Made by a program: the position numbers and the translations under genes. From a virus: a stretch of 64,000 nt of DNA. This document shows, one piece after another, positions 1,953-36,052 of this stretch; position 1 is the first letter of the stretch; each line of letters opens with the position of its first letter. Under the pieces are notes generated by a model. It had not been told where the DNA came from. It searched no databases and was given only the letters and a program-made list of their open reading frames with translations. The stretch lies in IMG/VR virus record IMGVR_UViG_3300045988_120652; one strand, written 5' to 3'.

Positions 1953-3041
1953 TTATCCCCAGTTGTCGTTGGTTCGTATCCATTGTTTGCAGATGCGGAA
2001 TGTCGGCATAGCTGCTCCTCGTATTCTTGAGATTTCTCCCCCCCCCCAGTCCGACTGTTTGTAGAATCGTGCCGCGTCCAGTGTCCCGGGTCTGGATTTT
2101 TGATGTAGTCGCCTGTGTCCTGAGCAATCCTCTGACGTTTCTGAGAGGCATCCAGTCCTTGCGGATGTTCCACCAGATATATTCTCTTTTGAATACCCCC
2201 CGTTTCGGATAGCCTTGATAGCCCTTATCCAGTTGCGCTTGATATGCGGATAGCGTTCATTCTCGATGCGCTTCTGCTTTGCAGACGACATAGGGCAGCC
2301 GATGCAGCCTATGCGATGCCTGCCTTCGTCGTAGAGCGAGCAATGAGGGACCTTCACCACATCATTAAGAAACTCCCATACGTCTTGCTCGGTCCAATAG
2401 ATGATGGGTGAAATCAAAAGACTCTCTTTGCCGTGTATGCAACCTAACGTCTGTTCTTTATCAGCGTTAGTGATATTCACGCCCTGCTCTTTAGATTTAC
2501 GGCGAGCACGTTTTGCCCTCTGCTCCTGTCGGTATTCGTCCAACCCGTCGAGGTCGCCGCTAAACTTTCGGTTGTTTATCTCCACCTCATTGCGCTTTGC
2601 TCGGCGCGTGCTTTCTGCCTTGCGAATACCAATTAGCGTGACCTTGCCGGCACCTGCCGTTTCCTTGTATTCCTTGCAACACCAACGCACACGCTTTGTT
2701 GGCAAAATTTGCTTCTCAACAGCGTGCTGGAAAATTGATTTGCCAGGCTTTATAAGTTCCACTTCGGGATAGTTCTTCTTTACGAAGCGTATCACTTCGG
2801 GAGGGTCAACGCTCGTAAGGTTCATGTGACTCTGGAACCTCACTCCCGCCAACTGCGTCATGTGGTAAAGAGCCTGAGAGTCCTTGCCACCACTAAATGC
2901 CAGGTAATAACCTTGCTCTGCATCATAGTTGAGAGCAATCGTTTCCGCCTTCTGCAACAGTTCCACCGAGTGAAGCATCTGCTTCCGCAATCGTGCCGAA
3001 GCTCGTTCTAATGCTTCAGCAAGTGTAATGTCTATATTCAT
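1953..3041 (-). CDS. PAPS-reductase-family protein (3'-phosphoadenosine 5'-phosphosulfate sulfotransferase-like ATP-PPase fold), apparently frame-disrupted near its C-terminus
   Basis: N-terminal P-loop-like YLAFSGGKDSQALYHM. After the coding-strand G10 run (2038-2047) the protein-like sequence continues in another frame (ORF 1768..2151, ending ...LTEEQENEIAENIYDWWISGKSYKQWYVEKFKQMKLDLGDF). Confidence 0.7.
   Translation of the reverse strand: MNIDITLAEALERASARLRKQMLHSVELLQKAETIALNYDAEQGYYLAFSGGKDSQALYHMTQLAGVRFQSHMNLTSVDPPEVIRFVKKNYPEVELIKPGKSIFQHAVEKQILPTKRVRWCCKEYKETAGAGKVTLIGIRKAESTRRAKRNEVEINNRKFSGDLDGLDEYRQEQRAKRARRKSKEQGVNITNADKEQTLGCIHGKESLLISPIIYWTEQDVWEFLNDVVKVPHCSLYDEGRHRIGCIGCPMSSAKQKRIENERYPHIKRNWIRAIKAIRNGGYSKENISGGTSARTGCLSETSEDCSGHRRLHQKSRPGTLDAARFYKQSDWGGGEISRIRGAAMPTFRICKQWIRTNDNWG
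2038..2047. repeat. C10 (G10 on the coding strand) homopolymer inside the PAPS-reductase-like gene
   Basis: Counted directly. G11 would join frame X (1953..3041) to frame Z (ends at 1768), giving one 424-aa product. Confidence 0.9.
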
Positions 3042-27656: not shown

Positions 27657-28040
27657 ATGGGAAGATATGCAACAAGGGCGACATTAAGGTATTATTGCGC
27701 CCAAGCCGACATCACGCTCTACCCCCATCGGCTCGATGGTGTCTCCTATCAGTATTGTGCCGGAGGATATGTCGTGAATGGCTATTTGGGACGTAGCAAG
27801 TCATGGTCTGATTTGAAATATTGTATGCAGCAAAAACTTATCTTTTTGCTAAAGTATGGCTCTGATGACAATCCTACGATATACAGCGATGGAACAGTTA
27901 TAGAGTGGCACAAAGAGCCGCACGCAATTCTGCCGTTAGCCCAACCTCTTATCGACAACAACGGCATGAAGATACGCACACTTTGGCCACCCGAATGTGA
28001 CGAGGAATTACAGGATTACTACAATCTTCTTAAATCATAG
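27657..28040 (+). CDS. Hypothetical protein
   Basis: 127-aa ORF. Its leader aacgaaaatatagagaa is repeated upstream of the next gene. Confidence 0.55.
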   Translation: MGRYATRATLRYYCAQADITLYPHRLDGVSYQYCAGGYVVNGYLGRSKSWSDLKYCMQQKLIFLLKYGSDDNPTIYSDGTVIEWHKEPHAILPLAQPLIDNNGMKIRTLWPPECDEELQDYYNLLKS

Positions 28041-28077
28041 CAAGCGATAAAGTATTAACGAAAATATAGAGAACATT

Positions 28078-28587
28078 ATGAGAACATTCAAATTCAGAGG
28101 CAAGTGTACAGATCCTAAGTACGATGGCAAAACGGCATGTGGCTCGCTGCTTTCTTTCCCCAATGGAGAGACAAAGATTTTTGAGCACGACCACGACAAG
28201 ACGTTCAACTATTTCGGTGTTGACCCCGCGACCGTCTGCCAGTTCACCGGTTTCCTTGACAAGAACGGCAAGGAGATTTATGAAGGCGACGTGTTGCGGT
28301 CAGACGAATATCCTTATAGCTGCATCGGAGATAAAAAACGCGACAACTATTATGCCGTAGTTTATTACTGTGAGGAAGGAGCTTGCTTTGGCACTGTGAC
28401 GGCCAAGAATCCCAGTTCTGACGTAAGAGGCATTTCAGACGGCATACTTGATGATGTAGAGCGAGAGAAAATGAAGACCTTCGAGGTTGTCGGCAATATC
28501 CATGAAGAGAAGTGGCAACAATACGGCGAATATTTTAAGACTGAAGAAGAAAAGGAGGCAGACAATGATTTATGCAGAAGACCTTAG
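28078..28587 (+). CDS. YopX-family protein
   Basis: FTGFLDKNGKEIYEGDVL and FEVVGNIHE match the YopX pattern. Confidence 0.6.
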   Translation: MRTFKFRGKCTDPKYDGKTACGSLLSFPNGETKIFEHDHDKTFNYFGVDPATVCQFTGFLDKNGKEIYEGDVLRSDEYPYSCIGDKKRDNYYAVVYYCEEGACFGTVTAKNPSSDVRGISDGILDDVEREKMKTFEVVGNIHEEKWQQYGEYFKTEEEKEADNDLCRRP

Positions 28588-29026
28588 AATAGGCGACATT
28601 GTGCAGATAAACAAAGACTGCATGTTTCCGAAAGACACGTTGTGCATCGTTACCGAAATCCATCCCGACCGACAGTATGAAGACAAGAAGGGAGTTGTCA
28701 GTCTGAAGGCTGTCAACGACGACGATGACGGACCATGGGGGGCTTGGTGCTGTAATATTGAAGGCGTGCCCGTCACGCCCGAAATACTTCGCAATAATGA
28801 CTTTAAGGAAGAGGTCGAGGGCAAGTACTTCACAAGACCAATTAAAGCCAGATTTGGCAGTTCCCTTGCCAGATATTTGGTTGTAGAACGGAAAAAATAC
28901 GCTTGGGCAATATTCATAAAGTATTACAACGTGACAGGCTTTGCACTCTTATGTCATATAAAGTACGTTCACGAACTACAGCTCGTCCTCAAGATAATGA
29001 AATTTAGTCCGGAAATTAAAGTATAG
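28565..29026 (+). CDS. Hypothetical protein
   Basis: Internal ATG (MIYAEDLRIGD...) of ORF 28487..29026. It overlaps the YopX gene end. Confidence 0.5.
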   Translation: MIYAEDLRIGDIVQINKDCMFPKDTLCIVTEIHPDRQYEDKKGVVSLKAVNDDDDGPWGAWCCNIEGVPVTPEILRNNDFKEEVEGKYFTRPIKARFGSSLARYLVVERKKYAWAIFIKYYNVTGFALLCHIKYVHELQLVLKIMKFSPEIKV

Positions 29027-29030
29027 CTCT

Positions 29031-29137
29031 ATGAAAGCAAAAAACAAGGTGCTGCTTGACAGAAACGAGAGTTCTCGCCCGCCCTTCTAGCCACCGACTA
29101 CAAATGCCTACACTGTATAATGATTGAATATGATTAA
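29031..29137 (+). pseudogene. TRD-like minigene C1, frame-disrupted
   Basis: The ATG frame gives MKAKNKVLLDRNESSRPPF*. A 1-nt shift gives ..EFSPALLATDYKCLHCIMIEYD*, homologous to C4. Confidence 0.5.
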
Positions 29138-29264
29138 GCAGCATCCATTCGACGATTTTCATCAGCGCATCTATTGGAGCGGAACCTGTATAGGAACCGT
29201 AACTCAACAATGGGGTAATCCTGCGCCTCGTCACGGATGGAGATTAATGATTGAATATGACTGA
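29130..29264 (+). CDS. TRD-like minigene C2 (44 aa)
   Basis: MIKQHPFDDFHQRIYWSGTCIGTVTQQWGNPAPRHGWRLMIEYD. QRIY..G...T.T...G resembles the M.HhaI-type TRD GERIYSTRGIAITLSAYGGG. Its ATG overlaps the C1 stop by 8 nt. Confidence 0.55.
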   Translation: MIKQHPFDDFHQRIYWSGTCIGTVTQQWGNPAPRHGWRLMIEYD

Positions 29265-29574
29265 CCCTCACTACAAACGCGGCACCATCCGCAAGGATGG
29301 CAAGCTGTATGGCCGCTATCCCGACGGATCGCTCTACCGCATCTACTCCTCCACCGACCTACCTTTCCTACAGTTGGTGGACCGAGCGGGCGAGACGTTC
29401 CTACGCATACGCCAAGCCACCGAGCTGGGCTACACCGACTGTCCCTGCCCTGGAGCCGCCGACCTAAGTTATCCGTCCTCGGCTCTGAGGCGTAGTCGCA
29501 CAGTCGGGAGGGGTAAGCTCGTAAACGCTCTGACCGCTGCAAGTGGCGGAATTTGCGTGTTTGTTGAATTATAA
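29257..29574 (+). CDS. TRD-like minigene C3 (105 aa)
   Basis: ..RIRQATELGYTDCPCPGAADLSYPSSALRRSRTVGRGKLVNALTAASGGICVFVEL. This matches the EATKKGY...P.S.TRRGRVG...TLT type of C5-MTase TRD. It is ORF-track 29251..29574 with the ATG at 29257. Confidence 0.6.
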   Translation: MTDPHYKRGTIRKDGKLYGRYPDGSLYRIYSSTDLPFLQLVDRAGETFLRIRQATELGYTDCPCPGAADLSYPSSALRRSRTVGRGKLVNALTAASGGICVFVEL

Positions 29575-29589
29575 AAGGAGAAATAAATT

Positions 29590-29961
29590 ATGATTATAAC
29601 GAATGATTGGCGGCTCTGGCTCGCATCAATGTTGTTTACGTTTGTCGTAACAATTTTGTTTATGGCTTACATTTGGTGGACAGAGCGAAAGCTAAAGAAA
29701 GAGATAAAAAATGATAGAGAAATAGACTATCAGAATTGTGATGGGTATTTCTTGTGTGTGTTTACCAAAGGTGGTGGATGCGATTTGCACAGAGCCTCGG
29801 ATGTCAAGCAGGTTGTTTCGTCTGTAAATAAAGATTACATCAACGTAATAATGACAGATGGTGAAGTAACGCATTATGAAGATGTCGTATCGTATGAGTT
29901 CAAACACGTTTTAGATTTGTCCTTGTATAATTTGAATACAGTAAAAAGAGTAGCTGAATAG
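29590..29961 (+). CDS. Hypothetical membrane-anchored protein embedded in the cassette array
   Basis: 123 aa with an N-terminal TM helix, AT-rich relative to its neighbours. Confidence 0.5.
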   Translation: MIITNDWRLWLASMLFTFVVTILFMAYIWWTERKLKKEIKNDREIDYQNCDGYFLCVFTKGGGCDLHRASDVKQVVSSVNKDYINVIMTDGEVTHYEDVVSYEFKHVLDLSLYNLNTVKRVAE

Positions 29962-29990
29962 GCTTGTAGAACATTTAACTAATAAAATTT

Positions 29991-30362
29991 ATGAAAAGAG
30001 AAAAACGACTGCCCGATGTGCTGTTAATGTCGGCTAAAGCATCCACCTTAATGTCAAACTCAACCAAGGACGCTTGCATCTGCGTCGAGTCTGACGAACA
30101 AAGTGTAAGTTTTAAGGACGAACCGTCGGAAGGTGTAACGATGGATATTACAGCCGAGTATCGCAACATCGTTCAGTTGTGGCACCCTGCCACAGAAAAG
30201 CCTCATTGCATAGGTCAACTTCTCTGTTGGTGTTACGACAGAACATTCTTCGTACACAACCATTACAGCCATGACGATGAAAATTGGCATTTATTCATCA
30301 GCACTAACAACATAAAGCGTTATTGCTATATTTCCAATTTGGAACCCGAATGGTTTATTTGA
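29991..30362 (+). CDS. Hypothetical protein embedded in the cassette array
   Basis: 123-aa ORF. The C4 ATG starts 1 nt after its stop. Confidence 0.5.
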   Translation: MKREKRLPDVLLMSAKASTLMSNSTKDACICVESDEQSVSFKDEPSEGVTMDITAEYRNIVQLWHPATEKPHCIGQLLCWCYDRTFFVHNHYSHDDENWHLFISTNNIKRYCYISNLEPEWFI

Positions 30363-30363
30363 G

Positions 30364-30495
30364 ATGACTGACATTAAGATATCCGTGCATCCCGTTAGCC
30401 ATCGGCTCGAATGGCGAGGATGGGGTGATTTCTCGCCCTCCCTTCGAGCCACCGACTACAAATGCCCACACTGTATAATGATTGAATATGACTAA
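30364..30495 (+). CDS. TRD-like minigene C4 (43 aa)
   Basis: MTDIKISVHPVSHRLEWRGWGDFSPSLRATDYKCPHCIMIEYD. It carries the SPTL(R/T)A.DYK.P signature of C5-MTase TRDs. Confidence 0.6.
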   Translation: MTDIKISVHPVSHRLEWRGWGDFSPSLRATDYKCPHCIMIEYD

Positions 30496-30616
30496 TCTTG
30501 ACTTCTACCAATATCCTCGTGGCAAAAACGGGGGGGTACTAAACACTATGATTTGTCCGACCGTTACTATATCTTCATGGCAGCACAACTATTTTCTGAT
30601 TGAAGAATATGATTGA
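30488..30616 (+). CDS. TRD-like minigene C5 (42 aa)
   Basis: MTNLDFYQYPRGKNGGVLNTMICPTVTISSWQHNYFLIEEYD. It contains a G7 run (30530-30536) and has an 8-nt overlap with C4. Confidence 0.55.
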   Translation: MTNLDFYQYPRGKNGGVLNTMICPTVTISSWQHNYFLIEEYD

Positions 30617-30749
30617 CATCCAACCCTTAAATGTCTGTATGGGAGGAATAGCAGTAACACTGAATACACGATACGAGCGACTTTGCATTGAGCATTTGAT
30701 GTCACTTGCCCACTTTCCGAGGACAGGCGTAATGATAGAATACGAATAA
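30609..30749 (+). CDS. TRD-like minigene C6 (46 aa)
   Basis: MIDIQPLNVCMGGIAVTLNTRYERLCIEHLMSLAHFPRTGVMIEYE. It ends 10 nt before the core gene ATG. Confidence 0.55.
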   Translation: MIDIQPLNVCMGGIAVTLNTRYERLCIEHLMSLAHFPRTGVMIEYE

Positions 30750-30759
30750 CAGTAACTAT

Positions 30760-31197
30760 ATGATCACAAAACTCAATTTCACCGACCGCACCATCAAGAG
30801 CTATGCCATCCGCAAGCTCACGCCCAAGGAGTGTTTCCGCTTGATGGGCGTTCGCGACAACGTAATCGGCACGATGCAGAGCAGCAATGCCCAGGCAGCC
30901 GAACGTCTGCCCGACTGGAAGGGCAAGGGTAAACCCGAAGACATGGCTATATCTGCATCACAGCAGTACAAGCAAGCTGGAAACAGCATCGTGGTGGACG
31001 TGTTGGCCCACATCTACGAGCAGCTTTTCTACCCCGCCCCGCCCAAGCCTCGCCCTGGCGAACAGCTCACGCTCTTCGACGACCTCGAAGACTCGCTGCC
31101 CGCTTTGCCGCCCCCCCCGCAGCCGACAAGAACGAGGAGAAGATATTCCTCACCACGTTCTCCGGCTACGACTCTCAGCTCATGGCAGCCGACGTGA
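30760..31197 (+). CDS. C5-cytosine DNA methyltransferase core, part 1 (motifs IX and X plus Pro-rich linker)
   Basis: IRKLTPKECFRLMGVRD is motif IX and YKQAGNSIVVDVLAHIY is motif X. The linker is PAPPKPRPGEQLTLFDDLEDSLPALPPPP. The frame is lost at the C8 run. Confidence 0.8.
   Translation: MITKLNFTDRTIKSYAIRKLTPKECFRLMGVRDNVIGTMQSSNAQAAERLPDWKGKGKPEDMAISASQQYKQAGNSIVVDVLAHIYEQLFYPAPPKPRPGEQLTLFDDLEDSLPALPPPPQPTRTRRRYSSPRSPATTLSSWQPT
31111..31118. repeat. C8 homopolymer in the poly-Pro linker of the C5-MTase core
   Basis: Counted directly. C9 would read ..LPALPPPPAADKNEEKIFLTTFSGYDSQ.. and fuse 30760..32072 into one 437-aa chain. Confidence 0.9.
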
Positions 31198-32072
31198 TAC
31201 GCGAGTGGCATCCCGACTTCCGATGGACGTGCAAGGGATGGAGCGACATCGACAAATACGCCTGTCAGATGCACAACCTCGTCTTCCCTCAGTTTGCCGA
31301 CTGCGCCCTGGGCGACATCACCAAGATTGACTGGCACGAGGTGAAACGCTCGCTCAAAGGCCGCGAGGTTGACCTCTTCACCTATTCCTCGCCCTGCCAG
31401 GACATCAGTCAGGCTGGCAAGCAGATGGGTTTGCAGGAGGGCAGCGATACCCGAAGCGCACTGCTTTGGCGTGTGGCGGATGCCGTGGAGGTGCTTCGCC
31501 CGAAGTATCTCTTGCAGGAGAACGTGGCGGCACTGGTAAGCCAGAAGTTCATGCCCGACTTTCAGAAGTGGCTCGACAAACTCTCCTCGCTCGGCTATGT
31601 CTCTCGCTGGGCTCGTCTTAACGCCAAGAACTACGGTGTGCCGCAGAACCGCGACCGTGTGTTCTGCCTCTCCATGCGCCGTGACGTGGCCTTCGACTAT
31701 CAGTTTCCCGAACCCTTCGAGCTGCTTATCCGACTGGAGGATGTGCTCGAAGAGGAAGTGTCCGACCGCTATTTCCTCAAGGATGATGCCGTGAGCAAGT
31801 TCCTCAAGGCAAACGACTCTGACAATGCCTTATTCCTTCAATTCGACCTGCCACCGACACATGAGGCGGCAATGTTCCTCAAGACATGGCTCACGCTGCG
31901 CATGAACACTTTCAACGGATGGGAGAGGGATTTGGACGAACTGCGCGATTGCATCGAGAACGAGCGAGATGTATTAAACAGCGATTTTGCAAGTTTCAGC
32001 GAGTATCATACATTCCCTTGCGAAGGTTTTGAGGAATTGTTTAAGGAGAATATGAAGAGGAAGAAGGAATGA
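31182..32072 (+). CDS. C5-cytosine DNA methyltransferase core, part 2 (motifs I-VIII, no complete TRD)
   Basis: The frame is open from 30933 and protein-like from about 31119. It reads IFLTTFSGYDSQ (motif I, upstream of the first ATG), TYSSPCQDISQAG (IV), LLQENVAAL (VI) and GVPQNRDRVFCLS (VIII), then FPEPFEL..LEDVLEE..SDRYFL, the usual N-terminal stub of a TRD. Confidence 0.8.
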   Translation: MAADVIREWHPDFRWTCKGWSDIDKYACQMHNLVFPQFADCALGDITKIDWHEVKRSLKGREVDLFTYSSPCQDISQAGKQMGLQEGSDTRSALLWRVADAVEVLRPKYLLQENVAALVSQKFMPDFQKWLDKLSSLGYVSRWARLNAKNYGVPQNRDRVFCLSMRRDVAFDYQFPEPFELLIRLEDVLEEEVSDRYFLKDDAVSKFLKANDSDNALFLQFDLPPTHEAAMFLKTWLTLRMNTFNGWERDLDELRDCIENERDVLNSDFASFSEYHTFPCEGFEELFKENMKRKKE

Positions 32073-32260
32073 GAACTGACAACCCACCCGACCGTGTAAT
32101 CCGTATCATAGCTGATATGATTAGGGGTGGTAGGTTGCTCACCTGCCCTGCCTCGATGTTCAGCGCAGAACGTTTCAACGGAGCATTTCACGGCATAGCA
32201 ATAACCATCATGTCGCGCACCGATTGCAGCGACGTATTCTTTGTAGCAGTAGAATTATGA
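32069..32260 (+). CDS. TRD-like minigene C7 (63 aa)
   Basis: ..SAERFNGAFHGIAITIMSRTDCSDVFFVAVEL, compared with ERIYSTRGIAITLS in M.HhaI. An ATGA overlap joins it to the core stop. Confidence 0.55.
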   Translation: MRTDNPPDRVIRIIADMIRGGRLLTCPASMFSAERFNGAFHGIAITIMSRTDCSDVFFVAVEL

Positions 32261-32403
32261 TACTCCCATTTAACACAGAATCCGATGGTACATCACACAC
32301 TATTAAATCCCAATATTTCAAAATGGGAGCAGCGAATGTGCTCGCCATTTCGTTTGACGGTGCCAACTTCAAAGCCACTGGCGCAATCGTGATATATGAA
32401 TAA
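32257..32403 (+). CDS. TRD-like minigene C8 (48 aa)
   Basis: MILPFNTESDGTSHTIKSQYFKMGAANVLAISFDGANFKATGAIVIYE. An ATGA overlap joins it to C7. Confidence 0.5.
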   Translation: MILPFNTESDGTSHTIKSQYFKMGAANVLAISFDGANFKATGAIVIYE

Positions 32404-32548
32404 CAACCCTCGCCCCATTATCCTCGGCTCCTACAGCCCCTCGCAGAACGGCATCATCGTGTCGCCACACGGCATAGCCTTGTGCATAGTCGGGGGAGGT
32501 AAGGGTCACGACGTGGATAAACCGAAAATATTGATAGAGTATGATTAA
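32396..32548 (+). CDS. TRD-like minigene C9 (50 aa)
   Basis: MNNNPRPIILGSYSPSQNGIIVSPHGIALCIVGGGKGHDVDKPKILIEYD, with an 8-nt overlap. Confidence 0.55.
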   Translation: MNNNPRPIILGSYSPSQNGIIVSPHGIALCIVGGGKGHDVDKPKILIEYD

Positions 32549-32667
32549 TCGTTCCGTCCTCGTCCAACTACCGCACCGAGGAAGCCAAAGCCTTCCGTCA
32601 AGAGCATGGCGACCGAGGAGGGTGTAAATACGGCGACAAGTATCACCGCCCAAGTCCGTGGCCGTAG
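32541..32667 (+). pseudogene. TRD-like minigene C10, frame-disrupted
   Basis: The ATG frame gives MINRSVLVQLPHRGSQ...*. The neighbouring frame gives ..SSSNYRTEEAKAFRQEHGDRGGCKYGDKYHRPSPWP*, the same RTEEAK..R TRD type as C11. A third frame carries the tail VAVEQFD. Confidence 0.4.
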
Positions 32668-32705
32668 AGCAATTCGATAACAACAGTAACAAAAGACAAC
32701 CTATT

Positions 32706-32882
32706 ATGCTTAACATTCATCTGATACACGAAGCCAGAACCGAACACGCGAAAGCCGTGCGTCGCTTAATCGGCACTAACGACTTCCGTGATAAGGAATG
32801 GCATCTGCGACAAGGATGTTGGATGCAATGTATAGGTACTTCCCTCACCACTGACAATCTGATTGCAATATGTTACGATTAA
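32706..32882 (+). CDS. TRD-like minigene C11 (58 aa)
   Basis: MLNIHLIHEARTEHAKAVRRLIGTNDFRDKEWHLRQGCWMQCIGTSLTTDNLIAICYD. It lies within ORF-track 32658..32882. Confidence 0.55.
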   Translation: MLNIHLIHEARTEHAKAVRRLIGTNDFRDKEWHLRQGCWMQCIGTSLTTDNLIAICYD

Positions 32883-32909
32883 TAGTACAAATAATAAACA
32901 AAAAGAAAT

Positions 32910-33203
32910 ATGAGTCTTTACGCAGAAAAAATAATAGTCAGAGACCACGAACGTAATGAAGATGTTGATGTGGCTTTCGGGCACAACACTATTTGCGACT
33001 GTGTTACTATCCGCCGAGGAGAAGATACTGTTTGTTTGTCGGACGACGAGTTCGATGCCCTTGCAGTGTTGATGATACGCGACTTTGTATCGAGGGAGAG
33101 TATCGAAAACGCAATAGAGCTAACCAGTACAGACAAGAAGAACCCATATCGCATATTCATAGCACGAACTGTGGATGATGAAAAATGGAATGGGGATGAT
33201 TGA
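32910..33203 (+). CDS. Hypothetical protein embedded in the cassette array
   Basis: 97-aa acidic ORF. Its stop overlaps the C12 ATG by 8 nt (ATGATTGA). Confidence 0.5.
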   Translation: MSLYAEKIIVRDHERNEDVDVAFGHNTICDCVTIRRGEDTVCLSDDEFDALAVLMIRDFVSRESIENAIELTSTDKKNPYRIFIARTVDDEKWNGDD

Positions 33204-33367
33204 CTTTCGCATAGCAGCCTTCCGAGGCCGTGCCCCCGATAATCCGTCCAACCGCAAGCATCCCTCCAACGGACGCTTCTTTCAGCGAATGGAGATAAAC
33301 GGGGGGTACAACCAACACCCTCACATCAGTAGGCAAAGACAATATGGTATTGATAACGTATGATTAA
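33196..33367 (+). pseudogene. TRD-like minigene C12, frame broken at a G6 run (33301-33306)
   Basis: As sequenced it reads MIDFRIAAFRGRAPDNPSNRKHPSNGRFFQRMEINGGYNQHPHISRQRQYGIDNV*. With G5 it reads ..QRMEINGGTTNTLTSVGKDNMVLITYD*, the classic RGR.P.NPS.R...NTLT..KDN TRD. Confidence 0.55.
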
Positions 33368-33508
33368 ACAAATCCCTTTCGTACAACGCATATCCCAGCT
33401 CTGCCCACGTCGGGGTATTCCACGGCATTGTCCGCCCGCTACGACGGATGGGCAGGGCTCTACGATGAACACGGACAGCACGCCATTGTATTGATAGAAT
33501 ATGAATAG
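33360..33508 (+). pseudogene. TRD-like minigene C13, frame-disrupted
   Basis: The ATG frame MIKQIPFVQRI.. parallels the C2 N-terminus. After about 33393 the protein-like frame changes to ..PALPTSGYSTALSARYDGWAGLYDEHGQHAIVLIEYE*. A 1-nt insertion in cgcatatccc would restore QRIxPALP. Confidence 0.5.
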
Positions 33509-33641
33509 GCATACACTAAATTGTCCGTCCGGCATCTGCTGCGTCCTGACATCGCATTACGCAAGAGAAGGATGGGCGAATATAGCAAGCAATACAACAT
33601 CACAATGCAAAGCACCCGCAGTATTGATAGAATATGATTGA
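33501..33641 (+). CDS. TRD-like minigene C14 (46 aa)
   Basis: MNRHTLNCPSGICCVLTSHYAREGWANIASNTTSQCKAPAVLIEYD. Confidence 0.55.
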   Translation: MNRHTLNCPSGICCVLTSHYAREGWANIASNTTSQCKAPAVLIEYD

Positions 33642-33804
33642 CAAGTATTACATCGGATGGGTACGCAGCGGCAAGGGCCTCGTAAAGAGACTACCGCGCA
33701 AACGGATAGCCAATGCCGTGACAACATCGCCACCAGGCTGCTTTGCCGACCCTCGCGATGGACTGGGCAACACCACACCGCATATAGTATATGAATATGA
33801 ATGA
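33634..33804 (+). CDS. TRD-like minigene C15 (56 aa)
   Basis: MIDKYYIGWVRSGKGLVKRLPRKRIANAVTTSPPGCFADPRDGLGNTTPHIVYEYE. Confidence 0.55.
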   Translation: MIDKYYIGWVRSGKGLVKRLPRKRIANAVTTSPPGCFADPRDGLGNTTPHIVYEYE

Positions 33805-33961
33805 CACCGCACGCATCTTCGTAGTCGGCATGATGCAGACACCACCCTACGACCGAATGTTTGAGCAGAGCTGCCGCGTGTATTCCGCAAAAGGAATATC
33901 GCCTACGCTGCATACGCAAGGGGGGGGGGATAGAGAGATAAAGGTATTAGTGGAACTATAA
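33797..33961 (+). CDS. TRD-like minigene C16 (54 aa)
   Basis: MNDTARIFVVGMMQTPPYDRMFEQSCRVYSAKGISPTLHTQGGGDREIKVLVEL. It has a textbook RVYS..G.SPTL...GG TRD core, and an in-frame G10 run (33920-33929) encodes GGG. Confidence 0.65.
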   Translation: MNDTARIFVVGMMQTPPYDRMFEQSCRVYSAKGISPTLHTQGGGDREIKVLVEL

Positions 33962-33973
33962 TACACAGAAATT

Positions 33974-34117
33974 ATGGAAGAAATGTTATTGAGCGACTAT
34001 ATCGCTATGCTCCAGAAATTAAAGGAACAGCATGGCAACATAATAGTGAGAAGTGATAGCGGATGCGATTTGTCCGCTTACTATTCTGACTGGGATGATG
34101 TGATAGTAGTGAATTAG
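33974..34117 (+). CDS. Hypothetical small protein (47 aa)
   Basis: MEEMLLSDYIAMLQKLKEQHGNIIVRSDSGCDLSAYYSDWDDVIVVN. Below the ORF-track cutoff, so tentative. Confidence 0.35.
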   Translation: MEEMLLSDYIAMLQKLKEQHGNIIVRSDSGCDLSAYYSDWDDVIVVN

Positions 34118-34137
34118 CAAAAAACAAAAGATTGAAC

Positions 34138-34506
34138 ATGAGAGAATTTGTGAGAAAGGCATTGCGAAACTACGGCTACCGATTTCTTGGGTATCAGAGC
34201 GGTAGCTACATTTTTGGCAAACCGCTTGGCTACGGCATACTTAGTGCGGAAATGCGCGAGGGTGAAAACTCCGTAAGTGTCATGCTGATGGTTAAAGGAA
34301 ACATGAAGGACGGCAAGCGCCCGAATCTGCTATGGCAGGAGACAAGCCGGGACTTTCCCGAAGAACATGACGAACAGAAGATGTACGAGGCGTTGGTGCA
34401 AGCTGTTGCCGACTGTGAGGCAGACATCTTCTCTAAAACGCCTGTGGCTTGGTTGCAAAACCGAGACGTGAGATACGACTTCGAGGAGAATGTCCATATC
34501 GAGTAA
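34138..34506 (+). CDS. Hypothetical protein
   Basis: ORF 34132..34506 with the ATG at 34138. Confidence 0.55.
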   Translation: MREFVRKALRNYGYRFLGYQSGSYIFGKPLGYGILSAEMREGENSVSVMLMVKGNMKDGKRPNLLWQETSRDFPEEHDEQKMYEALVQAVADCEADIFSKTPVAWLQNRDVRYDFEENVHIE

Positions 34507-34556
34507 AAGGAATAATCTACCTTTGCCCATAGTAGAACCAACCGCTAAAAACGTGA

Positions 34557-34610
34557 GGTTCGAACCTTTGAATGAAAAGGTTCGAACGAATTGAGCAAAA
34601 CGTTCGAACC
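34557..34610. promoter_or_regulatory. Three phased GGTTCGAAC(C) palindromes (candidate operator array)
   Basis: The palindrome centres fall at 34561.5, 34583.5 and 34605.5, exactly 22 bp apart. The last lies 30 nt upstream of the HU-like gene. Confidence 0.55.
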
Positions 34611-34640
34611 CATGTGGTTTGCTCATAAAACTTAATAACT

Positions 34641-35177
34641 ATGGCGATTAAAGCTAAAGTGATAGTAAGAAGCAATTCTATCACGAAAGAAAAGGTTGCA
34701 AGTGCCAACATCGTTGACTTGCAGCCGATGTCATTCACCGAGTTTTGCGACTACATGGCGCAGGACTCTACAGTAGGCGTGGCGGACGTGATGGCCGTGA
34801 TGACGCAGTTGGAGAAGAAGTTGCCGCTTCTGCTCGCTCTGGGCACCAAGGTGCAGGTGTCTGCCGAGGGCATGGTGGTACGCCCTACCGTTAGCGGCTC
34901 GCTCACTCAGAGCCAGCTCAAGGCGAAGCTCGAAGCTCGCAAGGCAGAGGGCGAGGATGTTGACGTGAACCGCGAGATTACCGCTGCCGACCTCACCACT
35001 AAGGACCTCACAGCAGGCGTGGCCATCGACTTCTCAAGGAAGTTCAACGCTGCCTTCGCACAGCACGGAATGTTCAAGCGTGTGGGCGACGCTGCTGCAA
35101 CGAACGCTCCGTCGGCTCCCGGAACAGGTGGCGAGCAGAAGCCGGATGGAACACCGGGCGGCGAGGTGGACGCATAA
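34641..35177 (+). CDS. HU-like (HU-HIG type) DNA-binding protein
   Basis: MAIKAKVIV...MSFTEFCDYMAQDSTVGVADVMAVMTQLEKKLPLLLALGTKVQV resembles the Bacteroidales histone-like DNA-binding proteins. The C-terminal tail is low-complexity. Confidence 0.5.
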   Translation: MAIKAKVIVRSNSITKEKVASANIVDLQPMSFTEFCDYMAQDSTVGVADVMAVMTQLEKKLPLLLALGTKVQVSAEGMVVRPTVSGSLTQSQLKAKLEARKAEGEDVDVNREITAADLTTKDLTAGVAIDFSRKFNAAFAQHGMFKRVGDAAATNAPSAPGTGGEQKPDGTPGGEVDA

Positions 35178-35184
35178 TATTCGG

Positions 35185-35271
35185 AACTACAGAGAACACA
35201 GAGAACACAGAGACAGTTTTTACATCGGATTCTTCGGATTGAACTCCGTGTCCTTTGTGTCCTTTGTAGTT
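35185..35271. terminator. Long hairpin of the AACTACAGAG family
   Basis: aactacagagaacacagagaacac pairs with gtgtcctttgtgtcctttgtagtt, with G:U-type mismatches. Confidence 0.5.
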
Positions 35272-35428
35272 CTACTTCCCACTTATCCCGAAGGCCAAGG
35301 GACCGTACTCAGTGAGCCGCATGTCGCCACTCCGTTCAACGTATCTAACGGGCTCTGGTGCAGACGAGCGAGGAGAAGGAAAACTCAACCACTGCACATT
35401 TCTTTCATTAACGGATTTATAGAGAACA

Positions 35429-36052
35429 ATGAACACATTTATATCTACTTTTTTAGGATGGGCATTCTTTCTTGCTGCCATCTTCGGCTGGACGTTTTTT
35501 CTCGCCTTTGTCGTTTGGCGTGTGCGGATAATGCACAAGGAACGTCTTGCAAAGAAAAGCCAGCGGAAGAGAGAGGAGAAGCGGAAGACCGACTCTGACG
35601 ACATGCCTGTGCTCCTCAATCCGAAAGAGCGTCGCGAATACATGCTCAACCACATCGAGGACGGACGTTTTTACGCAATCTCCTCGCTCCGTGGCTCTGA
35701 CACCACCATTGTATGCGCCAAGCCGTATGATGCCGAAGAACAAATGCTATCTTGCTACGCTTACCTCTGGATAAGCGGGCGTGGTGTGTATAATCTGCAC
35801 GTTAGTGACCCTCGCGGTATATTAAAATTTCGTGATTTTTTTGGCAACAAGGCCCTGCGCATCGACTTCGACCGTAATCCTCACCTTGTTGTCTTTGAAG
35901 AAGAGAACATTTCTCAGTATATCGTAGATAGAGACTACAACGACTTCGTGCAAAGCTTGCAAAAGGCAGGATTCGACTGGAAGATTGAGAAGGGCGAAGA
36001 TAACGGACTGGGCTCTTATAAATATCTCTTGAAAGAAACAAGAACAAAATAG
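35429..36052 (+). CDS. Hypothetical membrane-anchored protein
   Basis: 207 aa with the N-terminal TM helix FLGWAFFLAAIFGWTFFLAFVVW. Confidence 0.55.
   Translation: MNTFISTFLGWAFFLAAIFGWTFFLAFVVWRVRIMHKERLAKKSQRKREEKRKTDSDDMPVLLNPKERREYMLNHIEDGRFYAISSLRGSDTTIVCAKPYDAEEQMLSCYAYLWISGRGVYNLHVSDPRGILKFRDFFGNKALRIDFDRNPHLVVFEEENISQYIVDRDYNDFVQSLQKAGFDWKIEKGEDNGLGSYKYLLKETRTK

Follow-up and report, generated by a model that had tools for sequence, protein, structure and literature searches.

Putative free-standing target-recognition modules around a permuted C5-cytosine methyltransferase core in a tailed phage

Multispecific C5-cytosine methyltransferases (C5-MTases) of Bacillus phages, i.e., those of the M.SPRI, M.phi3TI, M.rho11sI and M.H2I type, carry several modules of the target-recognition domain (TRD) within one polypeptide of canonical motif order. 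In permuted C5-MTases (M.BssHII, M.Alw26I, M2.Eco31I, M.Esp3I and M2.BsaI), motifs IX and X come before motifs I to VIII and the break lies in the variable region, and an N-terminal TRD on such a permuted enzyme is known as the 'type H' arrangement (PMC5944983). C5-MTases split in the variable region are also active, both as the natural two-subunit enzymes M.AquI and M.EcoHK31I and as artificial fragment pairs (PMC3404938, PMC5944983). Here, we describe a locus in the IMG/VR virus record IMGVR_UViG_3300045988_120652, of which the whole stretch analysed (64,000 nucleotides) is referred to as the window. Between positions 29031 and 33961, the + strand of the window carries one C5-MTase gene (30760-32072), with six short cassette units upstream and ten downstream of this core gene (16 in total). 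We consider it probable that this locus is a multispecific phage C5-MTase broken into a permuted core and free TRD modules, which would assemble with the core one at a time. Permutation, splitting and multiple TRDs are each known separately, and their combination is new: no account of TRD genes that stand free around a core lacking a TRD was found in the literature searched, in agreement with a preliminary description of this DNA whose author was aware of no system organized in this way.

The locus resembles the multispecific Bacillus phage enzymes in being phage-encoded, in having one catalytic framework and in its adjacent short modules, each with a hydrophobic final strand of the form ..(I/V)(I/V)E, and several modules serve a single framework in both (here 12 intact modules of different families and one core). 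Self-protection against several restriction systems is presumed for the multispecific phage enzymes and their in-line relatives, as it is here, and the same module families are found in tandem in the uncharacterised in-line proteins P0295 and P0281. Unlike in the SPR/phi3T type, however, each module here is an open reading frame (ORF) of its own, the core is permuted, and the modules flank it on both sides. The order of motifs, with IX-X preceding I-VIII and a break in the variable region, is that of the M.BssHII type, to which the core relatives P0278 and P0255 also belong, but the TRD of that type lies in the same chain and the window core has none.

The division into separate polypeptides, with breaks within or close to the variable region, is shared with M.AquI, M.EcoHK31I and the fragment complementation of M.BspRI, M.BsuRI, M.HhaI and M.SssI. 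In the M.AquI type, two fixed pieces give one specificity and the TRD is attached to either the IX-X or the I-VIII part, whereas here a single chain comprises both parts and the variable-region module stands alone, free at both ends and present in many alternatives. The C5-MTase of Streptococcus phage Javan141 (L081) consists of two ORFs (615-1361 and 1459-1884) split in the variable region, an alpha/beta gene pair of the M.AquI kind; its beta chain is colinear with a cassette plus the core N-terminus, and its IX-X part is very similar to the N-terminal domain of the window core. In logic, the locus is also like the HsdS subunits of Type I systems, where a shared methyltransferase takes its specificity from a distinct subunit and the exchange of recognition modules changes the repertoire. 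There is, however, no homology to HsdS, which acts with N6-adenine HsdM dimers, has two TRDs per protein and is often encoded in invertible shufflons, which are absent here.

The core gene and the cassette array

The core, of approximately 440 amino acids (aa), matches the Pfam family PF00145 at 1e-48 in two stretches. Its N-terminal hairpin MITKLNFTDRTIKS is followed by motifs IX (IRKLTPKEC) and X (GNSIVVDV), a Pro-rich linker, motifs I (FSGYDSQ), IV (SSPCQDIS), VI (ENV) and VIII (QNRDR), and the proximal stub of the variable region (FPEPFEL..SDRYFL). Only 14 residues precede motif IX, and none of the cassette-family profiles was found within the core. These features support the interpretation of the core as a permuted C5-MTase without a TRD, as had been proposed; the additional claim that nothing follows the stub does not stand, since approximately 100 further, helical residues form a C-terminal extension.

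The 16 minigenes initially reported on the + strand were all recovered at their positions, although four of them (C1, C10, C12 and C13) are disrupted. The 12 intact ORFs (C2-C9, C11 and C14-C16; 42-105 aa) each have an ATG and a tail. The cassettes bracket the core as described, but the array is not made up of cassettes alone, as three unrelated ORFs are interspersed. Nearly all cassettes end in (V/I/L)(L/I)IEY(D/E) or V.VEL directly before the stop codon, which confirms the shared tails noted before. The features of the array are listed below; tails run up to the stop codon and E values are those of the best match of the family profile.

29031-29137, + strand: C1, degenerate G-type cassette; short ORF MKAKNKVLLDRNESSRPPF with its stop, then the tail EFSPALLATDYKCLHCIMIEYD with its stop in another frame; frameshifted near-copy of the C4 tail (repeat D4: 69 nucleotides (nt), 93% identity)
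29130-29264, + strand: C2, J-family TRD cassette, intact, tail LMIEYD; J profile 4e-11 against in-line MTases, the match stopping just ahead of motif IX
29257-29574, + strand: C3, E-family TRD cassette, 105 aa, intact, tail VFVEL; E profile 4e-14
29590-29961, + strand: inserted non-TRD ORF, predicted membrane protein (transmembrane start)
29991-30362, + strand: inserted non-TRD ORF
30364-30495, + strand: C4, G-family TRD cassette, intact; G profile 1e-15 against in-line MTases
30488-30616, + strand: C5, D-family TRD cassette, intact, with a G7 run (30530-30536) inside; D profile 2e-12
30609-30749, + strand: C6, A-family TRD cassette, intact; A profile 4e-4; stop 10 nt ahead of the core ATG
30760-32072, + strand: circularly permuted C5-MTase core without TRD; PF00145; M.HhaI-like fold in the model
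31111-31118, + strand: homopolymer of eight C with the core frameshift; relatives read CCCACC or CCCATC
32069-32260, + strand: C7, TRD cassette of the A2 subfamily, tail VAVEL; ATG overlaps the core stop (ATGA)
32257-32403, + strand: cassette C8, TRD cassette, M/R-like by inspection only (SQYFKMG..), tail IVIYE
32396-32548, + strand: C9, B-family TRD cassette, tail ILIEYD; omega (defined below) 0.07
32541-32667, + strand: C10, degenerate frameshifted cassette, YRTEEAKAFRQEHG.. in the frame adjacent to its ATG
32706-32882, + strand: C11, TRD cassette (ARTEHAKAVRR...TSLTTDN), tail AICYD; homologous free cassette in the related locus L087
32910-33203, + strand: inserted non-TRD ORF, 97 aa; stop overlaps the C12 ATG by 8 nt
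33196-33367, + strand: C12, L-family TRD cassette, frameshifted at a G6 run (33301-33306); L profile 9e-17
33360-33508, + strand: C13, C-family TRD cassette, frameshifted after ..CPRRG
33501-33641, + strand: C14, I-family TRD cassette, intact; I profile 9e-9
33634-33804, + strand: C15, H-family TRD cassette, intact; H profile 2e-11, against the TRD fused to the N-terminus of permuted P0278
33797-33961, + strand: C16, F-family TRD cassette, intact, M.HhaI-like (RVYS..G.SPTL..GGG), with a G10 run (33920-33929); F profile 2e-23

Cassette C8 has neither a family assignment nor a profile comparison because the tail pattern used in clustering missed it. A stretch ..KSVAVEQ..NKRQP.. is conserved before C11 (window 32628-32705) and before the L-type cassette of the related locus L001 (7860-7950), and may be the leftover tail of a lost cassette.

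Cassettes as candidate TRD modules

The resemblance of the minigenes to TRDs, previously suggested from hallmark residues, was examined by comparing profiles of the cassette families with the interval between motifs VIII and IX of in-line enzymes. We obtained 150 diverse C5-MTase representatives by exhaustive HMMER search, using a canonical-order chimera as the query. Among them, the profiles of 16 of the 18 families found matches (E < 1e-3; best values per family 2e-23 to 4e-4, with K at 8e-15 and the remaining leading families as listed above), while reversed-sequence controls of the profiles gave 0 matches. In targets of canonical order, every profile match (153/153) fell between motifs VIII and IX. 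The F profile alone matched 64 of the 150 representatives, and 46 targets held two or more families in tandem, e.g., P0295 (Q-F-L-E-D) and likewise P0281, which identifies these targets as in-line multispecific enzymes. Pairwise comparisons point in the same direction. With the C12-type (L-family) cassette, tblastn gave matches solely inside annotated phage C5-MTase genes (60% identity and E = 1e-8 in those of Streptococcus phages), and all 70 weaker tblastn matches of C3 fell inside C5-MTase genes of Streptococcus phages. A cassette followed by the core N-terminus aligns colinearly with the TRD and then motif IX of Javan141 (..SVQKDNYAVEL-PDYRIRKLTPKEC) and Javan269, and C3 aligns with TRD2 of the Javan269 MTase. 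Pfam gave no family for nine cassettes, and a PDB sequence search with C16 and the C12-type cassette returned chance matches only. Taken together, the sequence comparisons support that the minigenes are TRD modules.

The tails were previously interpreted as a common docking element. The shared tail is real, but it is no special tag: in-line homologues end likewise, abutting motif IX, so that the tail is the terminal beta-strand common to every TRD module. This is seen in single-module enzymes, where the cassette end adjoins motif IX (..NNFVVEPYFRIRKLSP), and another in-line homologue of the tail strand reads ..NNFVVEP-YFRIRKLSP. At the DNA level, the tails carry the repeat TAATGATTGAATATGA in eight copies, because the ATG of the following gene falls within the tail codons (GAATATGAnTGA). 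Among 169 cassette-cassette junctions from 81 loci, 121 have an 8-nt overlap and 32 a 4-nt overlap; gaps of 3-50 nt also occur. Stop-codon reassignment was ruled out, as all three stop codons end cassettes and the following ORF is out of frame.

Within families, pairwise ratios of nonsynonymous to synonymous substitution rates (dN/dS, omega) were 0.07-0.45, with dS of 0.4-1.4. When recomputed per frame, omega was 0.07-0.41 in the annotated frame versus 0.8-4.0 in the two shifted frames. A search with C3 found 205 proteins, of which the 120 listed range in length from 78 to 154 aa and mostly end in VFVEL. The C3 homologues stand alone as proteins of approximately 100-130 aa, and where named they are hypothetical proteins of Caudoviricetes. 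The in-frame purifying selection, the conserved stop/start overlaps and the stand-alone C3 homologues support translation of the cassettes as separate, coupled ORFs, in keeping with the initial proposal. In public annotation, the core is a 'cytosine specific methyltransferase' and the cassettes are each a 'hypothetical protein'.

For C16 and the core modelled with AlphaFold2 without an alignment, the predicted local distance difference test score (pLDDT) was 31. A second model was built for a canonical-order chimera, consisting of the core motifs I-VIII, stub and C-terminal extension, then C16, then the core N-terminus with motifs IX and X, using an alignment of 88 rows without paired cassette-core rows. 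This model reached a pLDDT of 86.7 and a predicted template modelling score (pTM) of 0.80, with pLDDT of 60-89 for C16 (residues 318-371) and 53-89 for the helical C-terminal extension of the core. The C16 tail forms a strand that runs on into the MITK of the core and is paired with TIKSYAIRK, the motif-IX strand. In the model, the covalent chimera has a two-domain M.HhaI-like fold, and its top PDB match in Foldseek is M.HhaI itself (E = 2e-23, target template modelling (TM) score 0.84-0.85).

Related phages and genome context

An IMG/VR scan yielded 143 loci with a core 69-98% identical to that of the window, of which 80 were fetched and analysed. The search of related phages that had been recommended finds the same layout in more than 170 viral contigs from many samples, and the recurrence of the stops shows that assembly is not at fault for them. 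In 71 of the 80 loci, one unbroken ORF beginning at the same ATG (MITKLNF) encodes the core. In none of them does it run into a cassette, and an in-frame stop precedes the ATG by a median of 7 codons. The loci with a broken core are L006, L022, L050, L053, L054, L066, L068, L070 and L077 (approximately 11%), which seems frequent given that the gene is conserved; in L053 and L054, the linker region contains a C6 run. The nearest 120 protein clusters include 113 that begin with MITKLNF and 118 with no fusion at either end; the remaining two are P0237, the sole C-terminal cassette fusion, and P0178, whose short N-terminal extension is not a cassette. Cassettes adjoin the permuted, TRD-less core in all 81 loci of the clade, a set that was retrieved by a search with the core, and in most loci examined from other lineages. 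Each module keeps a start and a stop of its own throughout these 81 loci, and likewise in further contigs from other lineages.

The tail-bearing small ORFs cluster into at least 18 families, with 1-11 (median 6) detected cassettes per locus. The order of families is kept (G J E D K/A upstream; A M O R B N L C I H F downstream), and loci vary by the presence or absence of cassettes, and arrays are mosaic between close relatives. The three inserted ORFs (29590-29961, 29991-30362 and 32910-33203) are present in 7, 22 and 20 of the 80 related loci, respectively, and have no family match. As the stop of the third overlaps the C12 ATG with the usual 8-nt geometry, the junctions seem able to accept foreign genes.

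Both flanking positions of the cassettes have counterparts in natural fusions, as anticipated from the positional logic of canonical and permuted gene orders. Permuted order occurs in seven of the 150 representatives, all of which end 60-107 residues past motif VIII. In P0278 and P0255, TRD modules are fused in frame at the core N-terminus; downstream of P0255, there is additionally a free F-type cassette. In P0237 (L091, 2534-4009), the core continues in frame at its C-terminus into an H cassette (..KENMERK-NMNNKQYIGW..HIIIEYD).

Free cassettes also accompany more diverged cores: in 24 viral contigs of the P0270 type (cores 47-73% identical to P0270), in six contigs of the P0308 type (42-98% identical to P0308), and around the permuted core of P0364, with 3-13 free cassettes per locus in these lineages. 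Despite a different overlap geometry, the tail in most diverged lineages is ..IEY(D/E) plus one extra residue, and that of the P0308 lineage is ..EYG(N/Q)PIKF. In one diverged locus (L087; 2232-2519, 1921-2232), a small ORF comprises two tandem TRD modules, an L-type one and then one ending in LLVFEYA, and a DUF4406 gene is inserted in the array. A further candidate, L099 (41% identity, from a Clostridia metagenome-assembled genome (MAG)), was set aside as a fragmented MTase of canonical order.

The window is from a tailed phage, with genes for a head protease and for a tape-measure protein of 2067 aa; the tape-measure protein also rules out a crAss-like identity. Related contigs are 90-105 kb long, and megablast of positions 28000-36000 against GenBank phages matched nothing. 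The array is flanked by genes for a YopX-family protein (28078-28587; PF09643, 3.5e-13) and a protein with an HU-HIG domain (34641-35177; PF18291, 1.4e-8). The HU-HIG domain is typical of Bacteroidota, which agrees with the 94-95% identity of the core in two MAGs labelled Prevotella. Together with one C3 homologue labelled Alloprevotella, these two labels tentatively suggest a Prevotella-type gut bacterium as the host. A scan for sigma-70 promoters and terminators gave background levels, the sigma-70 model being ill-suited to Bacteroidota.

On the minus strand, the ORFs at 18-920, 940-1572 and 1953-3041 are additional DNA-modification genes, namely two DNA methyltransferase genes (phrog_67, 5e-66; phrog_799, 8e-67) and a 3'-phosphoadenosine 5'-phosphosulfate (PAPS)-reductase-like gene (phrog_424, 3e-35). 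The phrog_799 match covers profile positions 179-380 only, so that this methyltransferase may be truncated. In L091, too, the array has a PAPS_reduct gene in its vicinity. Runs of G or C in the window are G8 (1084-1091), C10 (2038-2047, at the overlap of the minus-strand ORFs 1768-2151 and 1953-3041) and the G7, eight-C and G10 runs listed above. Four runs have at least eight bases and two of these have 10, against a rough hand-estimated expectation of approximately 1 (at least eight) and 0.1 (at least ten) for 64 kb at 48% GC. These runs could be homopolymer assembly errors or contingency tracts.

Mechanism, alternatives and significance

Based on the motif order of the core and the homology of the modules, we propose a scheme for how the parts would work together. 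The core would provide one permuted catalytic chain (IX-X-linker-I..VIII) that retains just the proximal stub of the variable region, and is predicted to catalyse C5-cytosine methyl transfer. The modules would be proteins of 40-105 aa with one target-recognising unit each, ending in the beta-strand that leads into motif IX, and the small genes would be translated singly, mostly coupled via ATGAnTGA or ATGA stop/start overlaps. A single module would dock between the C-terminal stub and the N-terminal hairpin/motif IX of the core, its tail strand pairing with the YAIRK strand so that the small domain is rebuilt. Every core-module complex would then methylate a different short sequence, each module having its own specificity, and the phage DNA would be protected from many host Type II restriction enzymes, with a repertoire that shifts between phages through the gain and loss of cassettes. 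A broader version of this proposal, which we judge to be just on the probable side, is that one core is programmed in trans by interchangeable subunits of approximately 45 aa in a Type I-like manner, and that gut-phage libraries of at least 18 such modules, gained, lost and exchanged at a conserved junction, produce a combinatorial anti-restriction methylome in which G/C homopolymers might switch specificities on or off.

In-trans assembly is plausible given the active two-subunit and fragment-pair enzymes, but a number of observations weigh against the proposed assembly of core and free modules. The binding of a free module to the core in trans is a step that we infer, and M.SssI splits in the distal variable region, between the TRD and motif IX, complemented poorly (PMC3404938); the system here requires breaks on both sides of the module. 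The structure model speaks for compatibility of the core and C16 only, since the chimera is covalent and the alignment included in-line enzymes with F-type TRDs. Families C and P had no in-line match among the 150 representatives, and eight window cassettes concatenated gave no tblastn match against GenBank phages at E <= 0.1. In the window itself, the core is split by 2 additional nt in the C run at 31111-31118 relative to its relatives and four cassettes are frameshifted, three of these disruptions falling at G/C runs, so the window copy may be inactive or mis-assembled; the core is also broken in 9 of the 80 relatives. These same breaks are what would be expected if the array were a decaying or artefactual multispecific MTase gene whose stops are mutations or assembly errors. 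Such an origin is nevertheless extremely improbable, as the same arrangement of stops and starts is found again in more than 170 contigs of many samples, as well as in diverged lineages, omega in frame is far below 1, and the MITKLNF start of the core is kept in 113 of 120 clusters; decay explains the window copy at most, and not the system.

The fused forms P0237, P0278 and P0255, together with the conserved 16-23 nt junction repeat at the cassette ends and the mosaic arrays of close relatives, would also fit a silent reservoir, in which only a covalently fused module is active and the free cassettes are an archive for recombination at the repeat that occasionally fuses or swaps the module adjacent to the core. 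We regard this as unlikely. With the core unfused in 71 of 80 loci and 118 of 120 clusters, most phages would hold an enzyme without specificity, and each cassette has its own ATG and stop and is under in-frame purifying selection. Moreover, the junction repeats are all direct, so that recombination would delete only, and its product would keep a stop and a frame change ahead of the core. Inverted repeats in 28500-34500 are weak (72-93% complementary) and none is of note, no recombinase was seen among the neighbours examined, and the shufflon-type combination of inverted repeats flanking TRDs with a recombinase was not found. Quite unlikely, too, is a role of the small proteins independent of the core, e.g., as DNA binders that mask sites, as decoys for host enzymes, or as regulators or inhibitors of the core. 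Selection on the cassettes as separate proteins would suit such a role, as would the conjectural nature of core binding; yet the cassettes stand beside the permuted TRD-less core in all 81 loci of the clade, themselves retrieved with the core, and in most loci examined from other lineages, and what they keep is precisely the part missing from the core, down to the strand abutting motif IX. Judging by the M.HhaI and M.HaeIII structures, a TRD of 40-60 aa is not known to fold or bind DNA alone. Finally, ribosomal frameshifting or transcriptional slippage at the overlaps could join cassettes and core into a single-chain multispecific enzyme. The nearest in-line relatives do indeed carry several of these modules in tandem on one chain, the cassettes overlap by a few bases, and the locus holds G/C homopolymers, but we find recoding very unlikely. 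The heterogeneous junctions (8-nt and 4-nt overlaps, 3-50 nt gaps) would require differing frame changes and share no slippery motif, all three stop codons are in use, and the 10-nt gap after the upstream cassettes contains two in-frame stops. Unrelated ORFs break up the array, and scans for tRNAs and Rfam families were empty, leaving no suppressor tRNA, intron or known recoding element.

If the assembly of one permuted core with free modules is true, this would be the first natural C5-MTase whose specificity comes from free, exchangeable mini-subunits, which would alter our view of how specificity is encoded and evolves in this family. The approximately 440-aa core and approximately 45-aa modules would also represent a natural toolkit for programmable or split writers of 5-methylcytosine, and would provide compact module-to-motif pairs for decoding TRD specificity. 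Hundreds of 'hypothetical' phage ORFs of 40-100 aa could gain annotation as TRD modules. Overall, such a system offers a possible explanation of how abundant Prevotella-type gut phages withstand hosts rich in Type II restriction systems.

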